A stretch of DNA of 64,000 nt, from positions 2,720,001 to 2,784,000 of the forward strand of contig OZ271854.1 of assembly GCA_965601925.1 (NCBI GenBank), given 5' to 3'. Shown piece by piece: positions 1 through 14,333 of the stretch. Position 1 is the stretch's first letter. Each line of letters opens with the position of its first letter. The notes under the pieces were generated by a model. The model saw nothing but the letters and a program-made list of their open reading frames with translations. It was not told the origin of the DNA and ran no database searches. The position numbers and the translations under genes were made by a program. Origin of the DNA: Alkalispirochaeta sp. (GTDB taxonomy: Bacteria; Spirochaetota; Spirochaetia; DSM-27196; Alkalispirochaetaceae).

Positions 1-854
1 GAATCGAGGTGATCGGCGGATGGCACATCACCGACGAGAACGCCTCACAGGTCGTCGCGCAGATTAAGGACGCCGGATTCGAGTTGGCGTGCGTCATCCC
101 GGAGATTTGGGCCAATCCCAAGTGGGGCTGGGGATCGTTCGCCTCTACCGATCCCGGTATTCGTCGCGACGCGGTGGAACGGGTCAAGGCCGCCATGGAC
201 GCTGCAGCGGCGGCAGGCTGCTCGATGATCAGTCCGTGGTTCGGCCACGACGGGTGGGACTACATCTTTACCATGGATTACCTCAAGGCGTACGACTGGA
301 TCATAGAAGGGTTGTCGGAGTGCGCGGATCACAACCCCGCGGTCAACATCGCCGTCGAGTTCAAGCTCAAGGAGCCGAGGACACACATTCTCGTCAGCAA
401 CACCGCCAAGACGCTCATGATGGTCAACGAGGTCGACAAGCCGAACGTGGGGATCAATTTGGATACCGGTCACGCCCAGTACGGGTACGAGAACCTCGCC
501 GAGAGCGTCGCTCTCATGCGCCGGTTCGGCGACAAGCTCATGCACATCCACCTCAACGACAACTACCGCTATTGGGACGACGACATGATTCCCGGTTCGG
601 TACACACCTTGGAGTGGGTCGAGTTCTTCTACTGGCTGGACAAGGTGGGATACGGCGGATACCTGAGCCTGGACGTCTTCGCCTTTCACGAACGGGACAA
701 GGCGGCGGTGGCGCGAGAGTCCCTCAAATGGCTCGATCTCTTTCAGGAGGCCGCCTCACGTCTCGACCCCGAGGAGGTAGAGGGCGTACTCGAGTCGGGA
801 GACGCAATGGCCGCGCAAGCGATGGTCCGCAGCGCGCTTTGGCCCGGCAAGTAG
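1..854 (+). CDS. Xylose isomerase-like TIM-barrel sugar isomerase/epimerase, 5'-partial
   Basis: The frame is open from the window edge. Metal-binding motifs EFKLKEPR, NLDTGHA and HIHLNDN...DDD resemble the xylose/rhamnose isomerase-like family. Confidence 0.8.
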   Translation, partial: IEVIGGWHITDENASQVVAQIKDAGFELACVIPEIWANPKWGWGSFASTDPGIRRDAVERVKAAMDAAAAAGCSMISPWFGHDGWDYIFTMDYLKAYDWIIEGLSECADHNPAVNIAVEFKLKEPRTHILVSNTAKTLMMVNEVDKPNVGINLDTGHAQYGYENLAESVALMRRFGDKLMHIHLNDNYRYWDDDMIPGSVHTLEWVEFFYWLDKVGYGGYLSLDVFAFHERDKAAVARESLKWLDLFQEAASRLDPEEVEGVLESGDAMAAQAMVRSALWPGK

Positions 855-965: not shown

Positions 966-3242
966 TTACTCCTTCGCCGTCGATGCGTCGGTCGGCTCGT
1001 CGAATACGATCGTCGCACCCGGAAGCTCGATCACGTCCCCAGCCTCCAAGGTACGTTTTGTGTAGCGCCGGTTGTTGACCGTTACCGGCTGGGCGCTTAC
1101 GACGGTGTAGGTGCCGCGCTTCTCGTCGTGGACGATCGTGGCGTGGCGCTCCAACATGTCGGGGGAGCCTGCAATCGTCACGTCCGCCTCGGCACTCGCG
1201 CCGATGACCGTCTGCGGTCCCGACAGATCGAGCACCTTGGTCGAACCTCCCTGCGCGCCTAAGATTTCGAGGTTTGCCGCACTCCGCCCGCGGCGCGCCC
1301 GCAGAAGCGTCAACAACCACGCCAGGAGCGGAGCGGCGAGGATCGGAACGAGATAGATGAAGCCGAAGTCGTCGCGCGGAAGGCCGAAGATAGTACCGGC
1401 AAAGTAGCGCCGTTCGGCATCGACCGTCCGACCCGGCACCGCGACTTCGATGCGCACGGTCCGGAAATCGGCCGGCGAGATACCGGCGCGGTACCGGATG
1501 CGGTATTCGGTGAGGATCCGCTCGCGAATCAGGGTGTATACCGACTGGAGTTCCGCCGCATCGGCGGCGTCGAAGACCAACCCTCCCGCCGAGGCGGCGA
1601 TCTCTCCCAATAGAGGTTCGCCGCCGCCGGCGAAGTCTATCGCAAACACGCTTATCCCGGCGCGCTCGACAGCGGCCAACGTCTCCTCAATCGAGACCGA
1701 CCGGTCGCCGAACTCCGGATGGGGGCGACCGCTGTTGGCTGCAAAGGGGAAGTTCTCGCCGTCGGAGAGAATGATGAGCGCGCGACGTCCTCCTGCGTCC
1801 TCCAGATCGGCGGCGGCGGTCATAACGGCGCGAAAGAGTTCGGTGTATGCCTCGTCCGGTTCGGGGCGTTCGATCTCCTCAAAGATGAGATCGATCGTCC
1901 GCGGCGATTCCGTCGGCCCCGTGAGGAGGCGATAGCGCGTGTTGAAGGTCGCCAAAGCAAAGCGGTCGTTCGGCGTATCGATCTGATTCAGGAATTGCCT
2001 CATCGCCGATCCGACGGCGGCCATGCGGGTCGCTCCGCGCTCCTCGGTCGGTCTCCCGCCTATGGTGTCGTACATGCTGCCGGAGTTGTCGACCAGAAAG
2101 AAGAAGGTCACGCCGTCCTCTTCGTTGGCGCGTTCGTCCACCGAAATGAGCTCAACGGCGCCGAGCTCACCGCCGTCGGGTGCCTCGTACACCCGCATGT
2201 CGTCGGCGGTCAGCCCCGGTACGGGCCGCCCCGCGGAATCGGTAATCGATGCGTATAGGTCGATCTGTTGGTGGGTGACCAGGCGATCGATGTCGATCTG
2301 AGCGGGGCGGACGCTCTGTGCCGACAGGACGTCGACGCCGACGCCGCCCACCAACAGCGCTGCGGCCAGTATGAGCGGACGGAAGAGCAGCTTGGCGGAC
2401 CCGATCTGAAGCACATCGCCGAACTTGAGAAATCCCGAACCGTCTTCCGGTATCGCCTCGTCGTTGCGCTTGATCTCGTTCCCGTCGGCGGAGGGATAGA
2501 TTGCCAGTTCGCCTCCCTGCTCGCGAATCTCCGCGTGGCGTTCGGCGACTCGGCGATATCCCGGGATGCATACGTCGCTTCCCGCCCACTCGCCGATAAG
2601 TACGCGACGCTGGTTCAGAACAAACTCGGACCCCTTGCGCGGACCGTTGAGGAGACGGAGCATTCCCGTGGTCTGTCGATCCTCCACGAGGCTGTACATC
2701 GCGCTGACCAGAAGGCCGTAGACGACGACACCGATGGGACGCGCGTACTCTCGGGCGATGATGCGCGGCGCGATCTCGATCGCGAAGCCGCCGGCAAGCC
2801 CGCCGAGGAGTCCGCCTGCCAGCCCCCCGAAGGTGCGGCGCACGGAGCGGCGCCGCACACCCTCCGATCCGCCGACCGCCATCCCGAGTATCGCCCAACC
2901 GGCCGCGCGCGAGGCGGCGACTCCGACGGCGCCGAGCTGTGCGAAAAACAGGAGTGCTACCTGCCCCAGGACGAAACCGGCGGCACCCCCGACGGCACCG
3001 GTTGCCGCGCCGATGAGCGCGCCGCCGGCTACTCTGCGACGCACCCCGGCGACCATTCCGTCGATCGCACCGAAAAACGCGCCGAAGATGAGACCGAATG
3101 TGGCGCCCGAGGCGAGGCTGAAGGCGAGATACGATGGGAATCGCGACTGGAGCACGAGCATCGTCTCGAGGACGGGCCACGCCGCCGCACCGCCCAAGAG
3201 ACCCATTGCAAGGTAGACGAGTCGTCGCATTGCGTGTGACAT
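966..3242 (-). CDS. Membrane protein: multi-TM N-terminus, FHA, TM, VWA, TM, FHA
   Basis: Gly/Ala-rich hydrophobic helices in residues ~1-185. FHA-like segments RVLIGE...AERHAEI...GDVLQIG and TVIGA...LERHATI...GDVIEL. VWA MIDAS motif VDNSGSM plus ILSDG. Confidence 0.85.
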   Translation of the reverse strand: MSHAMRRLVYLAMGLLGGAAAWPVLETMLVLQSRFPSYLAFSLASGATFGLIFGAFFGAIDGMVAGVRRRVAGGALIGAATGAVGGAAGFVLGQVALLFFAQLGAVGVAASRAAGWAILGMAVGGSEGVRRRSVRRTFGGLAGGLLGGLAGGFAIEIAPRIIAREYARPIGVVVYGLLVSAMYSLVEDRQTTGMLRLLNGPRKGSEFVLNQRRVLIGEWAGSDVCIPGYRRVAERHAEIREQGGELAIYPSADGNEIKRNDEAIPEDGSGFLKFGDVLQIGSAKLLFRPLILAAALLVGGVGVDVLSAQSVRPAQIDIDRLVTHQQIDLYASITDSAGRPVPGLTADDMRVYEAPDGGELGAVELISVDERANEEDGVTFFFLVDNSGSMYDTIGGRPTEERGATRMAAVGSAMRQFLNQIDTPNDRFALATFNTRYRLLTGPTESPRTIDLIFEEIERPEPDEAYTELFRAVMTAAADLEDAGGRRALIILSDGENFPFAANSGRPHPEFGDRSVSIEETLAAVERAGISVFAIDFAGGGEPLLGEIAASAGGLVFDAADAAELQSVYTLIRERILTEYRIRYRAGISPADFRTVRIEVAVPGRTVDAERRYFAGTIFGLPRDDFGFIYLVPILAAPLLAWLLTLLRARRGRSAANLEILGAQGGSTKVLDLSGPQTVIGASAEADVTIAGSPDMLERHATIVHDEKRGTYTVVSAQPVTVNNRRYTKRTLEAGDVIELPGATIVFDEPTDASTAKE

Positions 3243-3243
3243 G

Positions 3244-4869
3244 TTACTCCTCCTGTGGGTCGAGCCCGACCTCGATGACGAGGCGGCTTTCCTCGGCCTG
3301 TATCATAAGGCTGAATACTTGCGTGGCGTACCCTTCGTGGCTGAACCGGAAACGGTGCACTTCGCCGCTACGCAGTTGAAATGAAAGCGCCGGCGTGAAG
3401 GCGAGCCAGCGGTCGCCGATCAGTATCGAAACGCGCGTACCGTCACCGATAAGGCGTCCGGTTTCGCGATCGACAACGGTGAAATCGACCTCCAACGGCA
3501 ACCTCGGGCGCTCGACGAACTCTGCCGTGACGTGGTACGCATCCACTCGGCGACCGGGAATCACCAGGCGGGTCGCGCTTCGCTCCCTCAACGAAGGGAG
3601 TGCGAACGACTCCCACCATACGATACTCCCGTTGGAAACCTTTACGCGGTAGGCGCCGGGGGTAAACTGGGCTCGGCGAGCGCGAAACACGTAGAACCGT
3701 TCGGTCTCTTCCTCCGGCACGATACGAAACGTCAACTCGCCCCCCGGTGCCTCGGGAATCTCCTCACCGTCGTCGACGAATACGGCGCCGGTTAGACGGA
3801 TCGCATCACGGTCGCGATCGGCCTTGAGCACGCGTGCGGTTACCTCGAGCGCTCCGTAGCGCGCGGGCCGGAAGAGTTCGCGATGGTACCCTCGGACAAA
3901 GAGGAGCCCGACGCCCAACGATAGGAGGAGCGCGGCCGCAACGCCCGCCGCGACGGCGAGTCTCGATCGGCGTTGCGGGAGTGCCTCCGCCTGTTCCTCG
4001 GTAAGATAACGACGGATCGTCTCGTCGCTGCGCTCGTTGGCTCCGATACGGTAGCGCCGATTGATGCGTGACGCGACTCGTTCCAGATGGGAGAATCGTC
4101 TGTCCGGTCGCGCCTTGAGCATCCGCGCCACGAGGCGCGCGACAAACGGTGAGACTTTGGGGTTGATGCGCCGCGGCGGCGTGTAGCGACCGCGTTGGAT
4201 ACGCGCAATTACCTCGGGAGTGAATGAACCGGGGTAGGGGCGCTTGCCGGTAACCATCTCGTAGAGTACGACGCCCAACGAGTAGATATCGGCGCGCTTG
4301 TCCACCGAGCGCGTACTACGAAACTGCTCGGGTGCCATATAACTCGGAGTACCGAGGGTCATTCCGTCGCGCGTCAGATCGGATTGCTCCTCGCCGCCGT
4401 GAATCGTGGCGATGCCGAAGTCGACGAGTTTTACCTCTCCCTCGTTGGAGATCAGGATGTTGGCGGGCTTTATGTCGCGGTGGACGACACCTTTATCGTG
4501 GGCGTAGGCCAGGGCGCGACACACTTCGCGCAGGATAAGAAGCGCGATTCCGTTCGGAAGATAGCGGCGCTGCCGGATCAGTGCGTCTAAGGACATCCCG
4601 TCGACGTACTCGAGCACGATGTAGTACGAAGAACCCTCGCGAAAGTGGTCGTATACGTCGACGATCGCGTCGTTACGCAGGTCCATCATGATCTGCGCTT
4701 CGCGACGAAAGCGCTCGCGAATATCGGCGTTACCCCGTAAGGTGAGCTTTTTGATGATGACCGTGCGTTCCAAGGTGGGATGACGCGCCGTATACACCGC
4801 GCCCATGCCGCCCTGGGCCAGGCGCGAGAGCACCTTGTACTTTCCGATCGATTCAACCGTCTTTGCCAT
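3244..4869 (-). CDS. Hanks-type Ser/Thr protein kinase with TM helix and C-terminal extracytoplasmic domain
   Basis: Motifs QGGMGAVY, IIKKL, HRDIKPAN, DFG, GTPSYMAPE and DIYSLG. TM segment LAVAAGVAAALLLSLGVGLLFV. Start placed at ATG 4869 (MAKTVE). Confidence 0.95.
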   Translation of the reverse strand: MAKTVESIGKYKVLSRLAQGGMGAVYTARHPTLERTVIIKKLTLRGNADIRERFRREAQIMMDLRNDAIVDVYDHFREGSSYYIVLEYVDGMSLDALIRQRRYLPNGIALLILREVCRALAYAHDKGVVHRDIKPANILISNEGEVKLVDFGIATIHGGEEQSDLTRDGMTLGTPSYMAPEQFRSTRSVDKRADIYSLGVVLYEMVTGKRPYPGSFTPEVIARIQRGRYTPPRRINPKVSPFVARLVARMLKARPDRRFSHLERVASRINRRYRIGANERSDETIRRYLTEEQAEALPQRRSRLAVAAGVAAALLLSLGVGLLFVRGYHRELFRPARYGALEVTARVLKADRDRDAIRLTGAVFVDDGEEIPEAPGGELTFRIVPEEETERFYVFRARRAQFTPGAYRVKVSNGSIVWWESFALPSLRERSATRLVIPGRRVDAYHVTAEFVERPRLPLEVDFTVVDRETGRLIGDGTRVSILIGDRWLAFTPALSFQLRSGEVHRFRFSHEGYATQVFSLMIQAEESRLVIEVGLDPQEE

Positions 4870-5899
4870 CGAAGATTCCCTCGTCGTAAGCAAGCTCCAC
4901 TACGTCACGCTCCGGGTCAAATCGGCGATTCGCCGGCGGGAGCGCGACGATCAAGCGCGAAGGATTATGAAACTGCACGTACCGGCCGCCGGCCCGCAAC
5001 GCGTAGCGTCCCGTCACCGGCCGGTGCCCTCCCAGATGGATCGCCTCGCCGTCGGCGCAGTGGGGAAGGAAATGGGCGAGCGTCGCCGCCACGCTCCCAT
5101 CCTCTGCGGCGTCGTTGTCCGTCCAGGTGAGTCCCTCGACGACCTCCGGCCGATCGCGATACTCGACGATCTCCTCGCTCAAAAAGGGGCGCATCGGTTC
5201 GGCGTGCGTCACCACGTAGCGCGTACCGACGGCCATGAGCGGTAACGACTTCTCGAACCGGTACACCGCCTCGGTCGCCTCGCCGCGGTAAAACCGTTGC
5301 ATATACGCGGCAACCATCGCACCCTCATACACAAACTTGCCGAAACGGTGGTTCCCGTCTCCCTCTTCGTTCGTAATATTCTCGTGATTTCCTTTGAGAC
5401 CGTGGACGCGGTCGGGATATGCCCTCTTGAGGAGCGCCACGGTCCTGAGGACCGCGAGACTCTCATACATCTCCTCATCCATCGCATCGTGAACGCGATA
5501 CCCATCGGTAAACTCCTCGAAGGCGCGTATCCATCGACGACGCGCACGCGCCTCACCGTGGACGTAATCGCCTACCATGACCAACTGTGCCCGGTCGGCG
5601 TCGATCGCGGACAGGAGCGGTGTGTCGATTCCGTGTTCGGGAAACGAGGTGGATAGCACCGTCGTGACGAGATCGATCCGCGCGTGGATATCGGGAAGAA
5701 CCACCGCCGGAAGCTCCGGCCGCAGGTGAACGAGTCCTCCGGGGCGGCCGTTCGTATCGCGGGGACGGAGCGAGGCGTCTTCCTCGGCAAGAGCAGTGCA
5801 CGCGCCTTCCATATCCGAGGTAAGTTCTTCGGCCGACGGAGGCGTCGTGTCGGCCGCGATGCGTTGTAACCGGTCGATGACGGCGTTCAGATCGCCCAT
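4853..5899 (-). CDS. Calcineurin-like metallophosphoesterase, putative protein phosphatase
   Basis: Ordered motifs DIH, GDYVHG, GNHE, THA and GH. Overlaps the kinase start by 17 nt. Confidence 0.85.
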   Translation of the reverse strand: MGDLNAVIDRLQRIAADTTPPSAEELTSDMEGACTALAEEDASLRPRDTNGRPGGLVHLRPELPAVVLPDIHARIDLVTTVLSTSFPEHGIDTPLLSAIDADRAQLVMVGDYVHGEARARRRWIRAFEEFTDGYRVHDAMDEEMYESLAVLRTVALLKRAYPDRVHGLKGNHENITNEEGDGNHRFGKFVYEGAMVAAYMQRFYRGEATEAVYRFEKSLPLMAVGTRYVVTHAEPMRPFLSEEIVEYRDRPEVVEGLTWTDNDAAEDGSVAATLAHFLPHCADGEAIHLGGHRPVTGRYALRAGGRYVQFHNPSRLIVALPPANRRFDPERDVVELAYDEGIFDGKDG

Positions 5900-6430
5900 C
5901 TACGATTGTACGATCGTCTTGTTGACCTCGATGAAATCGTCGGCGAGCACCTTGGTGACGTCGGTCAACAGCTCTTCTTCTACCTCGGGTTCGAGCTCGT
6001 CGATCGTTACGGCGATCATGTACACCGCCGAGCTGGATTTGATCGGTCCGTTCGTGAACGTCGCGACGGAGTCCACTGCAACGTCCTCTTTTAAGGCCGT
6101 CGCATCGGCGCTCGAATGGTCGGGCACGTCCCGTCGAATCCCGATCGAGGTGTAGTCTACCGTCCTCTTGTCGTCGACCAGCGGTCCGACCGTCAATAGC
6201 GAGCCCGAGTAGGTCAGAAAGAGCGCTCCGCGCTCCTCCGTGGCGCCGAACTCCTCGATCTCCTCCATCCCCTTCTCCGCGACACGCTGCTCGAAGATCT
6301 CCTTCTTCTCGAGCCACGCCGAAGCGAGACGCTCCATCGACTCCTCATTTTCGGGGAGTCCCGATGTCTTTGTTATATTCCGAATGTGATCCCGTACGGC
6401 GTCGGGAACCTTGTCCATGTGTTCGCCCAT
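5900..6430 (-). CDS. Acidic hypothetical protein (176 aa), paralogue of the N-terminal domain of 6508..7398
   Basis: AGGAG SD before ATG 6430. Its stop codon directly abuts the phosphatase ATG. Shares WLEK, RGA..LTYSGSL..GP and R.DVP with the divergent gene. Confidence 0.85.
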   Translation of the reverse strand: MGEHMDKVPDAVRDHIRNITKTSGLPENEESMERLASAWLEKKEIFEQRVAEKGMEEIEEFGATEERGALFLTYSGSLLTVGPLVDDKRTVDYTSIGIRRDVPDHSSADATALKEDVAVDSVATFTNGPIKSSSAVYMIAVTIDELEPEVEEELLTDVTKVLADDFIEVNKTIVQS

Positions 6431-6507
6431 AGAAACTCCTTTCTTGTGTGATACATTTTTCAACATGGCGCAGAATAGTCCCGAATTCCACAATCGAGAG
6501 GACGAGT

Positions 6508-7398
6508 ATGGCGAAGTTTGACGAATTGCCCGAATCGATACGGAGACACCTCGTTTCCTTGGCCGAAGAGACCGATATCACGCCCGCCGAGACGGCGCTG
6601 GAGCGCGTAACCGACAACTGGCTCGAGAAGCGTCGCCTGTACACCGAGCAAACCGAAGCCTTGGCGATGGTCGCCCAGACGCGCTTTGCCGCCGACGACC
6701 GGCGCGGAGCGATGCTCCTCACATACTCGGGATCACTCATTTCGATCGGACCCGTCGGCGATTCGGGGCGGCGGCTGGAGTACGCGAGCATCAAGCTGCG
6801 CACCGACGTACCGGGCCTTCTCAAGGGCGACGATGTCGGGATCGCGCAGGAGATCGTCGTCGATCGCCCGGCCGTGTTCGAGAGTGCGCCTCTCGCACGC
6901 AGCTCCGAAGTATTGTCGATCGTGTCCTTCGGACCGAAGGTGTCGGCCGGCGAACAGTCCGAGCGGCTCCGGCAGGCGATGCTCTTTCTTACCAACGGGT
7001 TCGTTCAGGCGAACCAGACGCTCTCGGTCGCCGGCGGCGCGTATCCCGACCAGTTTACGATGCGGGCGATGATCAAGAGCGTCGCGGCGCATAACGATAC
7101 GACGCAGACGGCGGCCAAAGCGATCATAGACGACTTTTTGGGTACCGTAGAGGCGGGCGTGCTCCTCGGCAAGCGCGTATCGATCGGCGGCCTCGGCCGC
7201 GTGGAGCTATCCGTCAAACCGGCCCGCAAGGCGCGCATGGGGCGCAACCCCGCCACCGGTGAGGAGATTCTTATCTCCTCGAAACCCGCCGTCTCCGCGC
7301 CTAAGATGAGTTTCGGGAGTGCGTTCAAAGAGCGGTCGTCCCACGTGCCGCCGGGGCGTATACGACCCGATCTCGCCGAGGATGAAAGCGGCTCGTAG
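6508..7398 (+). CDS. Unknown N-terminal domain fused to a C-terminal HU/IHF-family DNA-binding domain
   Basis: GAGGA SD before ATG 6508. The C-terminal ~95 aa contain VSIGGLG and ARKARMGRNPATGEEI, the HU arm signature. Confidence 0.85.
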   Translation: MAKFDELPESIRRHLVSLAEETDITPAETALERVTDNWLEKRRLYTEQTEALAMVAQTRFAADDRRGAMLLTYSGSLISIGPVGDSGRRLEYASIKLRTDVPGLLKGDDVGIAQEIVVDRPAVFESAPLARSSEVLSIVSFGPKVSAGEQSERLRQAMLFLTNGFVQANQTLSVAGGAYPDQFTMRAMIKSVAAHNDTTQTAAKAIIDDFLGTVEAGVLLGKRVSIGGLGRVELSVKPARKARMGRNPATGEEILISSKPAVSAPKMSFGSAFKERSSHVPPGRIRPDLAEDESGS

Positions 7399-7829: not shown

Positions 7830-9041
7830 ATGCAGGACCTTATGGGTAGTGAAGATCACGCCACCGTCTGTTACGGAACGTCTGCTCCCCACGCGTGGAA
7901 CGCGCACGTGGGATCCTATCGCGTCGAGCTCAATCACCATCCCGGCGACCCGCCGAATGTCCGTCGAATAACCGCGCGCTCGGGTGACGGCGGGTGTGTC
8001 GTCGAGATTGCGCCGTCGAAAGGGTTGTCGTTCCGTTCCGCGCGCTTCGGCGATCAGGAGCTGTTTTGGGAGCCTCCGCTTCCCAATTTGCCCGATCCCG
8101 AGGAGATCGATTTGGCCGGTACGGTCTGGATCGACGGCACGGAACACCGCGGCGCGGCGTGGGTGCGGTACTTCGCCGCCAGCGTCGAACTCTTGGGGCT
8201 GGACCATTGGGGTATGCACGACCGCCGCGGTGCGACGCTCCACGGCAACGCCTCGATGATTCCCGTTGAGCATGTGACATTTCGAGAGAGAGGCGACGAG
8301 ATTGAGATTTCGGGAGCGTTTCATATCGCCGACCCGGTGGATGTGCTCCCCGGACCGAATCGTCGACCGTACTACCGCGTCGCGCGGACGATACGTATCC
8401 ACGGGGCGAGGAGATCGCTGTATCAGCGCGACCGCATTACCAACCTCTCCGACGACCCCAAAACGCCCGATTGGGGGTATCACGTGCAACTTCGCCCCGA
8501 GCCGGGAAGTCGGTATCTGGTGCCGGCGCGCAGCACGCATCCGCGCCGCAGTCCCGGTGAGCCGCCGCCGGCGGACGCCGATACGTGGCGTCCCGTCGTC
8601 GATGCGACCACGCGCCGCGAACGCGGGTATGTACACCGCGATGTGTTGCGTGCGGCGGCGTTTCCCGACGGTTCGCCGGGGGTCGAGACGTTGCTCCTCC
8701 ACCCTCACGGCACCGGTGTGGCCTGTACTATCCCGCCGGCGTCCTACACGCTCTCGTGGTTTTCGTCGGGAGGTGCGAACGATCCGACCTTCTCGCTCCC
8801 GACGGGACCGAACGGAGAGCTTCTCCCCATCTTTGATCGTAACTGGGACGGAGTAGGACCCGAGATCGGTGCCAGCGCCCTCGACGGCGACGGCGATATC
8901 GACCCCTCCGTCGCACCGCACCGTCTGGAGCCCGGTGACTCCTTCGATCTGCAGCTTCTCCTGCGATTAGTCGATAAGGATGAAGCGGCGCGTATCGGCG
9001 ATCGGATTCTCCGTTATCGCGGGGGGACGACGGACCGATAG
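7830..9041 (+). CDS. DUF4432-like protein, aldose 1-epimerase superfamily
   Basis: Motifs LHGNAS, RDRITNL, YHVQL and GVGPE, in a sugar-metabolism context. Confidence 0.7.
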   Translation: MQDLMGSEDHATVCYGTSAPHAWNAHVGSYRVELNHHPGDPPNVRRITARSGDGGCVVEIAPSKGLSFRSARFGDQELFWEPPLPNLPDPEEIDLAGTVWIDGTEHRGAAWVRYFAASVELLGLDHWGMHDRRGATLHGNASMIPVEHVTFRERGDEIEISGAFHIADPVDVLPGPNRRPYYRVARTIRIHGARRSLYQRDRITNLSDDPKTPDWGYHVQLRPEPGSRYLVPARSTHPRRSPGEPPPADADTWRPVVDATTRRERGYVHRDVLRAAAFPDGSPGVETLLLHPHGTGVACTIPPASYTLSWFSSGGANDPTFSLPTGPNGELLPIFDRNWDGVGPEIGASALDGDGDIDPSVAPHRLEPGDSFDLQLLLRLVDKDEAARIGDRILRYRGGTTDR

Positions 9042-9111
9042 GGCGCCGTCGATACTCGATGTAACGGCATCCCACCCGCGGAGCAAGAGACTACGATTGT
9101 TCGCTTTGTGC

Positions 9112-9140
9112 TTGACCCGTGGAGTATTCCCCTGTACTGT
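9112..9140 (+). promoter_or_regulatory. Sigma70-type promoter of the ROK operon
   Basis: TTGACC (9112-9117), 17 bp, TACTGT (9135-9140). Confidence 0.6.
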
Positions 9141-9175
9141 TAGTTTATTCGTTGAATGAACTAACAGTACAGGGG
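9129..9175. promoter_or_regulatory. Palindromic ROK/XylR-type operator
   Basis: 22-bp inverted arms with one mismatch: CCCCTGTACTGTTAGTTTATTC-gtt-GAATGAACTAACAGTACAGGGG. The core resembles XylR operators and lies directly before a ROK gene. Confidence 0.75.
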
Positions 9176-9176
9176 G

Positions 9177-10211
9177 GTGCCCATCGATATGGCGGTGCAG
9201 GATCGTATCCGACGCACGAATCTATCTCGCATTCTCCACCTACTGCGGCGCTTCGGATCCGCGTCACAGGCGGAACTCGCCCTACGTACCGGACTACAAC
9301 CTTCGACCGTCTCGAATCTGGTACGCGAGTTGCGTCTCGGAGAGTACGTGGTCAGCCTGGGGCGCGGCGCATCGAGCGACCAAGGCGGTAAGCGTCCGAC
9401 GCTACTCGCCCTGAACGGGAAGCGCGGCGTCTATATCGGTCTGCTATGGGAGGCGGGCGTCGTCGCGTGGACGATAGTGGATCTTTCGGGCGGCATTGGT
9501 GCTTTGACGAGAGGGGCGGTGCGACACGAGACGCTCGACCCTTCACAGTCACGGACGCCCGAGGAGGTTCTCGCCGAGCTTGCCGGTAGCGCCGCGAATG
9601 ATCTCGGCGGCAGTGTACCGATTCTGGGAGTCGGGCTCGCCGTCGGGAGTGTCGTCGACCGCCACGGCGCGATTCGGCCTTCGGCGGACTTTTCGTGGGC
9701 TCTTCGGGAACCGGCCGCCGAGCTGAAGCGCCTCTTTGCCGTGGACGACTCGGTGCCGATAACCGTCGAGAATGATGCGAATTGTGTCGCCCTCTCGGCG
9801 GTCCGACGTCGAATTGGGTACGAAGACGGCTCGACGCCCGAGTCGCTGTTGGCGGTGCTCATTACCGATGCCCCGTTGTCGGCCGGGGTCGGGTTACTCA
9901 TCGATGATGAGCTCATTCGCGGGCGTACCGGGAGCTCGGGCGAACTCTTACCGGCGGGCCACGACCATGCGACGGACGATGTCGACCGGGCGCTCGCGGC
10001 GGCGCTGCGCCTCATCGATCCCGACGAGGTCGTTCTGGCGCGACCGGCGACGATATCCCTTTCTCAGCTGTCGCGCTCGCGCGTTGCGCTCGGCGATACG
10101 CCGTTGTACGAGGTCGATCCGGTGGACTCCATTCTCGACGGCGCCGTTGAGCTCGCCTTTCGAGCAAGCGTTCGTCATATCGTACAGGGAGATTTCACGC
10201 ATGCACGGTAA
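9177..10211 (+). CDS. ROK-family transcriptional regulator
   Basis: N-terminal HTH SQAELALRTGLQPSTVSNLV, linker GGKRP, ROK motifs VENDANC and G.SGE. Confidence 0.9.
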   Translation: MPIDMAVQDRIRRTNLSRILHLLRRFGSASQAELALRTGLQPSTVSNLVRELRLGEYVVSLGRGASSDQGGKRPTLLALNGKRGVYIGLLWEAGVVAWTIVDLSGGIGALTRGAVRHETLDPSQSRTPEEVLAELAGSAANDLGGSVPILGVGLAVGSVVDRHGAIRPSADFSWALREPAAELKRLFAVDDSVPITVENDANCVALSAVRRRIGYEDGSTPESLLAVLITDAPLSAGVGLLIDDELIRGRTGSSGELLPAGHDHATDDVDRALAAALRLIDPDEVVLARPATISLSQLSRSRVALGDTPLYEVDPVDSILDGAVELAFRASVRHIVQGDFTHAR

Positions 10212-11439
10212 TATCTTGGTCGGTCAATCCGGTGGACCCACGGCGGTGATCAACGCCAGTTTGGCGGGCGTGCTGCGGGCGGCGCGGACGGCGGGGTTCG
10301 GTGATGGTGACGGTTCGATCTACGGTATGCGCTTTGCGATCGAGGGGTTTTTGGAGGATCGCCTCCTCGATCTGGGAACGCTCTCACCCAACGACATCGA
10401 GCGGTTGCGCACAACTCCGGGTTCGGCCCTCGGCTCGTGCCGCTACAAGCTTGCCGATAAGGACCTTCCCCGGATTAAGGAGCGCTTGGAGCGTTGGAAC
10501 GTTCGCTATCTATTTTACATCGGCGGCAACGACACGATGGATACGATTCATAGGATCGTTGCGTACTGCGATCGGACCGGCTACACGCTGCAGGGTATCG
10601 GGATTCCCAAAACGGTGGACAACGACCTGTTTGCGACCGATCACACGCCCGGCTATCCGTCGGCGGCGCGATACGTCGTGCTGTCCGTGCAACAGGCCGG
10701 TCGGCTTGCGGCGGACATGCAACGCGTCGATCGCTTTGTAATCCATCAAACGGTCGGGCGCGACGCGGGGTGGCTCGCGGCCGCATCCGCAGTCGCGCGG
10801 CGAGCCCCCGACGAGGCGCCGCATCTCATCTACGTCCCCGAACGGCCCCTTACTCGCGAGGGGGTGCTTGCCGACGTGGAGCGGACGATCTCGGAGTACG
10901 GGTGGGCGTCAATCGTGGTCGGCGAGGGGATCGTCTGGGAGGACGGGACGCCCGTCTCCGCCGCCGCGTCAAGGGATCGATTCGACAACGTCGAGTTCGG
11001 CGCCATGAGCGGTTCGAGCGCGGCGGTCGGCCTCCACCGCCTGATATCCGAGAAGACCGGATATCGCGGTGAGTTTCAGATCCCCGAATCCATGGCAATG
11101 GCCGCCGCCGACCGCGTCGTGGAACTCGACCGAATGGAGGCGTACGGTTGCGGCGTCGAGGCCGTGTCTCGTGCCATGCGCGGAGAAAACAACGTGATGG
11201 TTACCATAGAGCGCGCGGAGTCCCGGCCGTATCGCGTGCGCTACGGCGCGGCCCCGCTCTCCGACGTCGCGGCCCGCGCCAAACCGATGCCCTCGGACAT
11301 GCTCGCCCCGGCGTGGGTGAGCGATCGATTTCTCGCCTATGTGCGACCCCTTATCGGACCACTCGATCGATACATCGATCTCGGCGCCCTTGCGCCGGCG
11401 GCGGTCGAGCGAGCGGCGGGACGAAGCGACGGAATATAA
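10201..11439 (+). CDS. pfp: PPi-dependent phosphofructokinase (PfkA family)
   Basis: QSGGPTAVIN, GGNDT and PKTVDND carry the Asp/Lys signature of PPi-dependent enzymes. Start at ATG 10201; the ORF-track extension from 9772 overlaps the ROK gene. Confidence 0.85.
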   Translation: MHGNILVGQSGGPTAVINASLAGVLRAARTAGFGDGDGSIYGMRFAIEGFLEDRLLDLGTLSPNDIERLRTTPGSALGSCRYKLADKDLPRIKERLERWNVRYLFYIGGNDTMDTIHRIVAYCDRTGYTLQGIGIPKTVDNDLFATDHTPGYPSAARYVVLSVQQAGRLAADMQRVDRFVIHQTVGRDAGWLAAASAVARRAPDEAPHLIYVPERPLTREGVLADVERTISEYGWASIVVGEGIVWEDGTPVSAAASRDRFDNVEFGAMSGSSAAVGLHRLISEKTGYRGEFQIPESMAMAAADRVVELDRMEAYGCGVEAVSRAMRGENNVMVTIERAESRPYRVRYGAAPLSDVAARAKPMPSDMLAPAWVSDRFLAYVRPLIGPLDRYIDLGALAPAAVERAAGRSDGI

Positions 11440-11451
11440 AGGAGCGCGAAG

Positions 11452-12462
11452 ATGAATACGCAGGATCGATACGGACGATTTGCGCTGTGTCGCGAGATGT
11501 TGGAGACGGTCGAAGTAGTGCGGCGATTCGACGCCAAGCGGATAGGGCGGACCGAGCTCGCCTCCGATACGGTCCTTCTCACCGGCGAAGGATCAAGCCG
11601 TATTTTTCCCGCCAAGCGTGCGATCGCCCACTCCTTACGAGAAGGGTGGCCGCAACAGATCGTGACCGAAAGCGCAACCCAGGCGTTGGAGTACGATTTG
11701 TCCGGATATCACGTGTTCATAGCCTCCAACTCGGGAAAGACCGCCGAAGGAGTGCATCTCATACGCGCGCTTCGTCGCGAGGGGGCGAAACCCATCGCCG
11801 CTATGACCGGTGTGGTCGCCCACGGTGGTACGCCGATCGCGGAAGAGGCGGACGACGCACTCGTCCTGGATTGCGGCGGCGAAGACGCCGTCGCGGCGAC
11901 CAAGTCGGTGGTGGAGCAAGCGCTCGTATACGATACGCTGTTCAGAGCCGCCAACGGGAGCCCGGGCGTCGATCGCGACGAACTCGCCGACGCGCTGCAC
12001 GCGGCACTGACGATGGATTTGAATACCGACCTCGTGAGGCGGATTGCTTCGTCCCCCGTACTCTATTTTTCGGGGCGTAACGACGGGGTGGCCGAGGAGC
12101 TTACACTCAAGACGAATGAGATCACACGCAAACGGTCGGATTTCCTCGAAGGAACGTACGCCGTGCACGGGATCGAGGAGGTCATGCAGCGTGACGAGAC
12201 GGTAATCGTCATCGATCCGTTTCCGCACCAGGAGGAGAAGTTTGCGTCGGTTCTCAAAGAGGGCGTCGGGATGAATGTGGTGGCCATCGGTCCGCGGGAG
12301 ACGATATTCCCCACCATCACCGTGCCCGACGCCGGGACGCTCTTGCCGTATGTGCTGCTTGCCGCCGGATGGAATCTGTTGGTCGAGGTCGGACTTTCTC
12401 TCACCATCGACCTGGATACTCCCCAGCGGGCGCGCAAGGTAGGTAACGAGTTTGTCGGGTGA
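11452..12462 (+). CDS. Double-SIS-domain protein, GlmS isomerase-like without glutaminase domain (putative sugar-amine-6-P deaminase)
   Basis: GEGSS, SNSGKT, VAATKS, ELTLKTNE, and C-terminal DTPQRARKV like the GlmS C-tail. AAGGAG SD. Confidence 0.8.
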   Translation: MNTQDRYGRFALCREMLETVEVVRRFDAKRIGRTELASDTVLLTGEGSSRIFPAKRAIAHSLREGWPQQIVTESATQALEYDLSGYHVFIASNSGKTAEGVHLIRALRREGAKPIAAMTGVVAHGGTPIAEEADDALVLDCGGEDAVAATKSVVEQALVYDTLFRAANGSPGVDRDELADALHAALTMDLNTDLVRRIASSPVLYFSGRNDGVAEELTLKTNEITRKRSDFLEGTYAVHGIEEVMQRDETVIVIDPFPHQEEKFASVLKEGVGMNVVAIGPRETIFPTITVPDAGTLLPYVLLAAGWNLLVEVGLSLTIDLDTPQRARKVGNEFVG

Positions 12463-12478
12463 CCGAAAGGAGCGATGA

Positions 12479-13327
12479 GTGACGACCTACCAGCTTTCCC
12501 GACGGCTCACAACCGGAGAGATACGTCGCGGTTTGTTTCCCGATGTGCTGCCGGAGTACAGCCCCGGCGAGCGATGGCTCCTATTGAGTCCCCACGACGA
12601 CGATCTTGCGATCGCCGGCGGACTATCCATCGCCGTGGCCGACGTCGAGGGTGTCGAGATGCGCGCCAGAATCGTTACCGACGGCGCAATGGGGTACACA
12701 TCGGTCGTCGGCGCCGATCGGATATGCGTCGTGCGACGAGAGGAGACCGCAGCGTGCTTTTCGATCCTCGGTATCGACGACTACGACTGGTACGACTATC
12801 CCGACGCGGGACTCGCTCCGTGGCAGGGGCGTAAAAAGGTATCGGACGGGGCGGCCTCGCCGCATACCGTCGCCGGATATACGGGGCTTCAGAACAGCAT
12901 TGTCGCCGAGCTGCGCGCGTGGCGTCCCCACCGCATGATCCTGTTGTCGCCCCAAGATTATCACCCGGATCACAAGATGGTGCATCAGGAGGCGCTGATC
13001 TCCATGTTTCACGCGCGCGGCGACATCTGGCCCGAGCTGGGTCCCCCGCTGGAGGCCGATCCGATCGTTCACGAGATAGCCGCGTACAGTCCCTTCGTCG
13101 CACCTCCGGACTTGGAGCTCCGGTGCCGAGAAGATCTGTTCCGTCGCAAGCTCGACGCCATCGCGGCGTACGCCTCGCAACGGCAAATAGCGCGGTTGGT
13201 CGAGTCCGTTCGCGCCGCCGGTCCGGTAGAGTACCTACGCACCATGCCGTTCGAGTTTTACCACGCCGCGGCCTACGCCGGATACTTTCGCCCCGGACCC
13301 TCCGGCGACGGCGCAATCGATGTTTAA
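12479..13327 (+). CDS. PIG-L/LmbE-family deacetylase
   Basis: SPHDDD, TDG, RREE, HPDH and AYASQ motifs. Confidence 0.85.
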   Translation: MTTYQLSRRLTTGEIRRGLFPDVLPEYSPGERWLLLSPHDDDLAIAGGLSIAVADVEGVEMRARIVTDGAMGYTSVVGADRICVVRREETAACFSILGIDDYDWYDYPDAGLAPWQGRKKVSDGAASPHTVAGYTGLQNSIVAELRAWRPHRMILLSPQDYHPDHKMVHQEALISMFHARGDIWPELGPPLEADPIVHEIAAYSPFVAPPDLELRCREDLFRRKLDAIAAYASQRQIARLVESVRAAGPVEYLRTMPFEFYHAAAYAGYFRPGPSGDGAIDV

Positions 13328-14333
13328 CGAGCGTCTCTTTACGCTCCGCCACCCTGCGGGCTCGACGGCTCTCATCGACGCTCGCTGCGGCGGTACGGTG
13401 CATCGCGTATCCCTCATTCCGGCTCCGGAGAGCGTTTCACAGACCGATCGGGCCGAGGATCGAGAGAACCCTTCGGCGGAGGCTATCCTCAAAGGCGACG
13501 ATCCGATCGTCGCGGACGGTCAAACGGAGTGCGATCCCGGCCTCTTTCGCGGCAGGATACTGGCGCCCTTCAACGATCGCGTCGCCGACGGAGTCTACCG
13601 ATGGCGAGGCAGACAGTTCAAGCTTCCGACCAATGATCTCGATACGGCCGACGCCATTCACGGATTTCTGTATCGTACCGAGCTCCACCGATCGGCCATA
13701 CCGGCGCCGGGCGGCGGGAGGCGGGCGAACGGGGCGACACTGGAGTTGTGCGGCGCATTGCCGGCCGACGGGCCGGATGGCGGCGGCTATCCCTTCCTCC
13801 TCGCCGTATCGATCATATACGTTCTTCGGGCGAGCGAGTTTGAGATCACCGTGCGGCTTACCAACCTCGGAGAAGACGAGGCCCCGGTCTCCATGGGGTG
13901 GCACCCGTACATCCTCCTCGCCGCGGTGGATTATGCGCCCGACGAGTATCGCTTAACGGTGCCTGCGGAGCGTTTCATCGAGGTCGACGAGCGTCTTCTT
14001 CCCACCGGCCGGACACCGACGGTCGCCGGTACGACGTTCGATTTCCGGTCACCGACTACGATAGGCGGTCGTGCCCTCGACGTGGGGTTTCCTCTCGTCG
14101 GCGACCGTCCTACCGTCTCGCTGGCGGCGGGAGACAGGATCGTACACGTGACGATGGAAGACGCCTTTCGTATGGCTCAGATTTTCGTGCCCGACGACCG
14201 CGACTCGGTCGCGATAGAGCCCGTCTCCGCTCCGGCCGACGTCTTCAATCGTCCGGAACTCGGCGTTATCGCACTGGCCGCCGGAGAGAGCGTTCGTGGG
14301 AACGCACTGGTGCGCTACGTGCGGCGCCGTTGA
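13320..14333 (+). CDS. Aldose 1-epimerase (mutarotase) family protein
   Basis: LAPFNDRV, AIHGF, GWHPY and AIEP motifs. Confidence 0.85.
   Translation: MFNERLFTLRHPAGSTALIDARCGGTVHRVSLIPAPESVSQTDRAEDRENPSAEAILKGDDPIVADGQTECDPGLFRGRILAPFNDRVADGVYRWRGRQFKLPTNDLDTADAIHGFLYRTELHRSAIPAPGGGRRANGATLELCGALPADGPDGGGYPFLLAVSIIYVLRASEFEITVRLTNLGEDEAPVSMGWHPYILLAAVDYAPDEYRLTVPAERFIEVDERLLPTGRTPTVAGTTFDFRSPTTIGGRALDVGFPLVGDRPTVSLAAGDRIVHVTMEDAFRMAQIFVPDDRDSVAIEPVSAPADVFNRPELGVIALAAGESVRGNALVRYVRRR

Follow-up and report, generated by a model that had tools for sequence, protein, structure and literature searches.

A conserved Ser/Thr kinase gene cluster of environmental spirochaetes, with an uncatalogued domain family and a possible link to an HU-type protein

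A cluster of five genes was analysed in a stretch of 64,000 nt of an Alkalispirochaeta sp. genome (contig OZ271854.1, positions 2,720,001 to 2,784,000; hereafter, the window). Four genes of the minus strand encode a small acidic protein designated X, a metallophosphoesterase, a Hanks-type kinase with one transmembrane (TM) segment and a membrane protein with FHA-like and VWA domains (TM-FHA-VWA-FHA), and a divergent gene encodes a second copy of X joined to an HU domain (X-HU). Judging from the sequences, the cluster is a conserved Ser/Thr signalling unit of many environmental spirochaetes, and it is well supported that its genes act together. The module is real, conserved and apparently undescribed in print; its kinase, phosphatase, FHA and vWA parts are known, and the X domain family is new. 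In the preferred reading, to which a probability of about 40% is given, the kinase and the likely phosphatase work with a VWA/FHA-like scaffold, and acidic X pairs with X-HU, so that the state of the kinase would control HU-type DNA binding. That the signal would reach the nucleoid by way of X and X-HU is a plausible proposal.

Conservation of the gene cluster

Homologous loci were taken from genomes (the best 80 of 141) and metagenomes (the best 80 of 108), and positions were counted at loci with enough flanking sequence. The kinase gene follows X at 70 of 72 genome loci and 46 of 47 metagenome loci, and the phosphoesterase gene does so at 61/72 and 42/47. TM-FHA was found after X at 53/54 and 22/25 loci, with the same counts for VWA, and X-HU is divergent from X at 47/71 and 29/55. 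Because this gene order recurs in most of the 160 outside loci, it is far beyond chance. Synteny of X with the kinase operon elsewhere had been chosen beforehand as a test of the proposed system; it is a conserved unit, and the objection from missing synteny falls away.

Among 301 genomes of the phylum, an X-family gene was found in 49 and TM-FHA in 44 (43 strongly; the one weak genome was dropped from the counts). All 43 strong TM-FHA genomes carry an X-family gene, and 41 of them a strong solo X. TM-FHA is present as a single strong copy in 42 of the 43 and is family-wide in some families (14/17). Full-length X-HU was identified in 29 of the 48 X-positive genomes searched, and each of the 29 also carries TM-FHA. 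X-HU is linked to the operon in either of two arrangements, upstream and divergent from it or downstream and convergent to it. The distances of X, X-HU and the kinase covary (r 0.79–0.87); these correlations were rejected as evidence of binding between X and X-HU, being compatible with shared descent.

The named relatives of X belong to spirochaetes, except for a record under the name Magnetospirillaceae and another that is unclassified. X was absent from the viral contigs and plasmids searched, and TM-FHA was not found in the plasmids searched. The only outside genes recurring near the cluster encode a small FHA protein and, less tightly, a cyclic nucleotide monophosphate (cNMP)/HD-type protein, labelled from its sequence and not from a scan.

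The five genes lie where the initial annotation had placed them (Table 1). The stop of X abuts the start of the phosphoesterase gene (0 nt), the latter overlaps the kinase gene by 17 nt, and 1 nt separates the kinase gene from that of the membrane protein; such spacing suggests that the four genes are translationally coupled. X-HU starts 77 bp from the start of X on the opposite strand. Its N-terminal part is indeed a paralogue of X, with 51 of 169 residues identical (30%, E 2e-32). The flanks of the cluster (window positions 3–854 and 7830–14333) contain genes resembling those of sugar metabolism, labelled by eye as isomerase-like, ROK regulator, phosphofructokinase-like, sugar isomerase, deacetylase and epimerase; they do not recur beside relatives of the cluster.

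Table 1. Features of the cluster, in window coordinates
Feature	Position	Strand	Description
X	5900–6430	-	176 aa; uncatalogued, strongly acidic domain; first gene of the operon
Metallophosphoesterase	4853–5899	-	348 aa; divergent PPP-like, likely cognate phosphatase (predicted)
Kinase	3244–4869	-	541 aa; Hanks (RD) kinase, single-pass membrane protein
Kinase domain	4081–4839		
Kinase TM segment	3898–3954		
Kinase C-terminal region			no Pfam family; predicted periplasmic
TM-FHA-VWA-FHA	966–3242	-	758 aa; two genes that are separate in most relatives, here fused
Gly-rich multi-TM region	~2682–3221		N-terminal half
FHA-like 1	2379–2657		N-terminal half; degenerate
TM segment	2319–2375		
VWA	1536–2102		C-terminal half; intact MIDAS
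TM segment	1302–1358		C-terminal half
FHA-like 2	~999–1280		C-terminal half; degenerate
X-HU	6508–7398	+	296 aa
X paralogue	6508–7029		part of X-HU
HU/IHF domain	7063–7335		part of X-HU
Spacer between X and X-HU	6431–6507		77 bp; AT-richer; candidate promoters on both strands
Candidate sigma70-type promoter	-35-like 6485–6490; -10-like 6462–6467	-	17-bp spacer
Candidate sigma70-type promoter	extended -10-like 6449–6457	+	overlaps the minus-strand promoter

Kinase, phosphoesterase and FHA proteins

The initial annotation described a TM Hanks kinase, and one TM segment and the kinase motifs were found in a protein that looks active. The Pfam scan gave Pkinase (2.7e-56), and of the genome's three proteins or frames with a Pkinase match this one is the best. 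The catalytic Lys K40, E57 of helix C, H130-R-D, D150-F-G and the activation-loop residue T166 are present in 100% and T171 of the same loop in 92% of 76 homologues, while the C-terminal region varies. The protein falls outside the PknB/Stk1 class of PASTA kinases: the NF033483 model gave 278.5 bits against a cut-off of 450 and covered the kinase domain only, and no PASTA repeats were found in it or in 12 related kinases. Another kinase domain of this genome (G000:C1:2307378-2308106) lies within an open frame of 2262 codons.

As for the phosphoesterase (Pfam Metallophos, 3.5e-05), its metal ligands and catalytic His (D70-x-H72, G110-D111-x-x-H114-x-E116, G170-N-H-E, H232 and H292) are invariant in 32 of 32 aligned sequences. 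It appears to represent a divergent PPP-like family and is likely the cognate phosphatase; in agreement with its proposed role as the eraser partnering the kinase, it travels with the kinase, and activity on phosphoserine and phosphothreonine (pThr) is predicted. Related genes were detected in 68 of the 301 genomes, strongly in 66, of which 26 are without TM-FHA. In TM-FHA-less genomes, the phosphoesterase gene directly precedes the kinase gene at 8 of 10 loci, and a small FHA gene stands in front at 2 of 10. Since the pair adjoins without TM-FHA, the kinase and the phosphoesterase form a wider core, to which the scaffold, X and X-HU are additions.

At one relative (L071:1713-10026), a second pair of kinase and phosphoesterase genes is convergent to the end of the operon. 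The genome studied contains a second, unrelated phospho-cluster (G000:C1 ~4745300-4752700; L154:5475-12676), comprising a PPP-like phosphoesterase, a PI3K/HipA-like kinase (motif assigned by eye), four paralogous helical proteins and a degenerate Hanks kinase whose tail is long and of low complexity.

The FHA-VWA-FHA membrane protein of the initial annotation is present here, but it is not the general architecture: the two halves are fused in 10 of 57 loci, a lineage-specific state, and are encoded by two genes in most relatives. The Pfam scan indicated VWA_2 (5.8e-12) and, in two stretches, the FHA-fold family Yop-YscD_cpl (9.2e-14). The metal ion-dependent adhesion site (MIDAS) residues of the VWA domain, D385, S387, S389, T467 and D494, are present in 100% of 57 homologues. 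The FHA-like domains differ in this respect. Binding of pThr by FHA domains requires the arginine of the GR motif and the serine of SxxH (PMC3162421). In the protein studied, the corresponding motifs are GE/AERH in FHA1 and GA/LERH in FHA2. Both pThr residues are kept in 4/59 FHA1 and 0/61 FHA2 sequences (sets that include a few cross-matches) and in 1/24 and 0/22 of the filtered metagenome loci, and a few lineages retain a canonical FHA1. The idea that the membrane FHA domains read pThr is therefore not supported, the Arg and Ser of the pocket being mostly lost.

Because the membrane FHA pockets are degenerate, the role of pThr reader falls more probably to a small GarA-like FHA protein. It is the only PF00498 match of the genome (1.4e-18), located 0.8 Mb away (G000:C1:1898929-1899123; L111:1474-1884, minus strand), and is 52% identical to the product of the FHA gene that directly follows X-HU in A. 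alkalica (L069). The G, R and S of the pThr pocket are invariant in 19 of 19 aligned sequences, which characterises it as a putative canonical reader, and an N-terminal acidic-Thr motif occurs in 14 of the 19 (Asp-Thr in the copy of this genome). The intact GR and SxxH and the N-terminal Thr motif are likewise features of the GarA/OdhI switch (PMC12321487), whereas the motif is not ETTS and the gene lies outside the window.

These data bear on a different explanation, namely, that a core of kinase, phosphatase and small FHA protein is a general envelope or metabolic regulator of the PknB/GarA kind, in which X serves the membrane complex as a generic adaptor and X-HU is a side branch, not the main output. 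The 26 genomes with a strong phosphoesterase and no TM-FHA agree with it, as do the kinase and small FHA genes found beside the phosphoesterase there, the resemblance of the acidic-Thr motif to the ETTS site of GarA (PMC12321487) and the 13 of 42 operon (TM-FHA) genomes in which no full-length X-HU was matched. However, X-HU occurs together with the TM-FHA gene in all 29 genomes in which it was identified and adjoins the operon in two layouts, and the small FHA gene stands beside the cluster at only 14/80 genome and 10/80 metagenome loci. A general regulator is thus regarded as possible, though rather unlikely.

The X domain, X-HU and the proposed mechanism

No Pfam family was assigned to X in the Pfam scan, and at E ≤ 10 no family was found in more than 3 of 39 X members. 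The best match in a sequence search against the PDB had E 0.025; in the ESM Atlas the best matches (0.85–0.86) are unnamed, and MJ1278, DUF2299 and YbjN were leads, all below 0.9. The predicted structure (predicted local distance difference test, pLDDT, 86.9) consists of a helical hairpin, a beta core and a C-terminal helix. Foldseek found nothing at E ≤ 0.001 among PDB and viral structures. A wide fold comparison gave a weak best match, 3g6i_A (Z 5.0, root-mean-square deviation (rmsd) 4.3, 91 aligned), and comparison with PH-like folds and the NucS N-terminal domain (2vld_B) gave values within background (Z 4.5, rmsd 3.7, 82 aligned; Z 4.4, rmsd 3.0). Matches as weak as these mark neither a known nor a new fold.

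By sequence, X is an uncatalogued domain family with several fusions. A quick tree contained solo, HU-fused and helical-domain-fused groups, with strong support for the helical-fusion clade only. The helical partner is a conserved domain of ~120 aa with no Pfam match and is encoded away from the operon (L118, L120, L121, L128; proteins P0287, P0289 and P0252); in one of these protein clusters, P0252, VWA-TM is also fused directly to the X domain. No longer X fusions appeared in the search made, which is weak evidence.

In X-HU (model pLDDT 88.9; PF00216, Bac_DNA_binding, 4e-14), the HU part aligns with IHF (Z 8.8, rmsd 2.9, 95 aligned) and HU (Z 8.6, rmsd 2.1, 87 aligned). It has an isoelectric point (pI) of 10.2 and an intact basic arm, in which K241, R243, N247, P248, T250 and G251 are present in 93–100% of 120 homologues; the fold and the basic beta arm are those of the HU/IHF family. 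Conservation of Thr250 was considered as evidence of phosphoregulation and rejected, since a Thr at this position of the arm is general to HU proteins. A canonical HU gene is also present elsewhere in the genome, separate from X-HU. Three other genomes contain HU-only paralogues 0.2–3.4 kb beyond the operon end, convergent to it and resembling the HU domain of X-HU (L157:4522-4905, L158:12334-12717, L159:5837-6169). In one further locus (L122:8092-10023), a frame of 374 codons with an N-terminal HU domain comes next after a distant solo X.

The spacer between X and X-HU carries overlapping promoter-like elements on both strands, which suggests joint control. The two patterns were found in 30/45 and 16/45 members of the genome set against shuffle means of 5.1 and 1.0, the patterns being derived from the same set; weight is therefore given to the metagenome set only, where the values were 15/27 against 3.9 and 5/27 against 0.8. 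A scan with a stock promoter consensus called neither site in the spacer.

X has a pI of 4.39 and a net charge of -20. In all 51 paired loci, the X-HU copy is the less acidic of the two (medians -21 for solo X and -5 for X-HU), and the last 30 residues carry a charge of -7 in solo X and 0 in X-HU; the last helix contains conserved arginines in X-HU, not in X. An acidic X beside a basic HU domain could act as a DNA-mimic-like inhibitor covering the HU arms directly and not through the shared X domain, with a precedent in DMP12, a DNA mimic that binds HU (PMC3643605). Against this reading, residues K42, S75, S77, Y93, R99, D101, S134 and F166 are invariant in both X and X-HU. Because they are common to the near-neutral X-HU copy, the conserved function of X is not acidity; in addition, the more distant solo X proteins are neutral, and genomes lacking X-HU still retain X. 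Such an inhibitor is therefore considered quite unlikely.

The polar residues of this set (K42 to S134) could also form the site of an enzyme or a sensor of a small ligand, the phosphoesterase with its altered PPP motif then being a nucleotide phosphodiesterase of a small-molecule signal. Against this, the phosphoesterase adjoins the kinase without X, X adjoins the kinase without the phosphoesterase, and no cyclase or nucleotide-synthase gene recurs among the neighbours; this explanation is very improbable. Alternatively, X may be a phosphopeptide-binding domain replacing the decayed FHA pockets, its Ser/Lys/Arg set reading the kinase phosphosites. X-HU would then be a one-protein relay docking at the membrane complex or at DNA depending on phosphorylation, and free acidic X would compete with it. 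This version is held to be unlikely.

In the preferred reading, the VWA domain and the kinase C-terminus would be periplasmic, with a sensing or binding role on that side of the membrane. The FHA-like domains may act as scaffolds independently of phosphorylation or be substrates of the kinase; the pThr reader may be the small canonical FHA protein, which has an N-terminal Thr motif. In the weakest step, X would bind X-HU via the shared domain and tether or restrain it until phosphorylation alters the pairing; X-HU would be an optional output layer over the older kinase-phosphatase core. In favour of this reading are the synteny and co-occurrence of the genes, the linkage of X-HU and of HU-only paralogues to the operon, the VWA-TM fusion to X in P0252, the preserved motifs of the kinase, MIDAS and HU domain and the difference in charge between X and X-HU. 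We infer the contact of X with X-HU, every phosphorylation and the signal.

Several observations weigh against this reading. The loci compared are top-scoring matches related by descent, and the metagenome set may overlap the genome set. The operon genomes with no full-length X-HU match include some that are 94–96% complete, and in other genomes X-HU lies on another contig or far off. The wider solo-X family is not uniformly acidic (-26 to +5), and X is also fused to the helical domain (13 rows) and to DUF2442 (P0205). The membrane topology comes from hydropathy alone. The phosphoesterase is missing at 11 of 72 loci; in 32 of 32 aligned sequences it has GDxxHxE instead of the canonical PPP motif GDxxDRG with its Asp-Arg pair, and its matches to solved structures, all 60 listed being PPP-type chains, are weak (best E 0.0013, ~30 residues).

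Comparison with known systems and significance

The initial annotation knew of no characterised system of this composition, and no description of the cluster was found in the literature searched, most subscription papers and supplements lying outside it. The accessible part of PMC7159879 describes no such spirochaete system. The Arn network of Sulfolobus (ArnA with FHA, ArnB with vWA, the kinase ArnC and the phosphatase PP2A) combines the same four domain types with an output in gene expression (PMC6509490, PMC7472852). ArnA reads phosphoserine and pThr and binds the phosphorylated C-terminus of ArnB, whereas the operon FHA pockets are degenerate and the vWA domain is predicted on the opposite side of the membrane; even so, the VWA protein could be a substrate through its cytoplasmic tail. 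The available portions of these descriptions contain no counterpart of X or X-HU. TerY-P triads likewise encode vWA, a phosphatase and a Ser/Thr kinase together, with a PP2C phosphatase, a zinc-ribbon or OB-fold kinase and restriction or ter neighbours (PMC10542128). The cluster instead has a calcineurin-like phosphatase (Metallophos and no PP2C in the Pfam scan), a transmembrane kinase and added FHA-like and X genes. In Esr of Actinomycetales (PMC13622651) and the MoxR-vWA ternary/GAP1-N2 systems (PMC7159879), a signal from the surface is passed on to transcription by vWA, kinase, phosphatase and FHA proteins; here neither a linked MoxR nor a beta-propeller sensor, a transglutaminase, Esx or a GTPase recurs, and HU is the candidate output.

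A role in sensing threats and inducing defence genes, after the manner of Esr or TerY-P, would agree with the variable C-terminal region of the kinase, and both precedents are suggestive, Esr having DNA-interacting outputs besides the shared parts (PMC13622651) and TerY-P triads being tied to defence systems (PMC10542128). The genomic data point the other way. A MoxR-like motif was found in one open reading frame among the 160 loci, and the three MoxR genes of the genome are at least 0.7 Mb away. The neighbours include no recurring effector, beta-propeller or defence gene, PADLOC matches the generic kinase domain only, and TM-FHA has the single-copy, partly family-wide occurrence and the covarying distances given above. 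Threat sensing is accordingly judged improbable. In its parts list, the cluster resembles Arn, TerY-P and Esr, but it departs from them in the features compared: no PP2C, no linked MoxR and degenerate FHA domains.

The operon FHA domains resemble MxiG-N of secretion systems, a membrane-anchored FHA fold whose pThr pocket does not function (PMC3162421); Yop-YscD_cpl is their best Pfam match, yet no secretion apparatus genes recur nearby. As for the proposed output, Ser/Thr phosphorylation alters DNA binding by HupB of M. tuberculosis (PMC4754617) and by Deinococcus HU at Thr37 (PMC9900698). Both are main HU proteins, whereas X-HU is a second HU with an N-terminal domain of 175 aa.

The analysis defines a conserved Ser/Thr signalling module of free-living spirochaetes, together with an uncatalogued domain family and a divergent PPP-like family. 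Its carriers include the cultured Alkalispirochaeta alkalica DSM 8900 (L069) and Spirochaeta africana (P0037), which makes the proposed mechanism testable. If the link between X and X-HU holds, the cluster would give a membrane kinase its own, genetically encoded path to an HU-type protein, while in the known cases general kinases act on the main HU.

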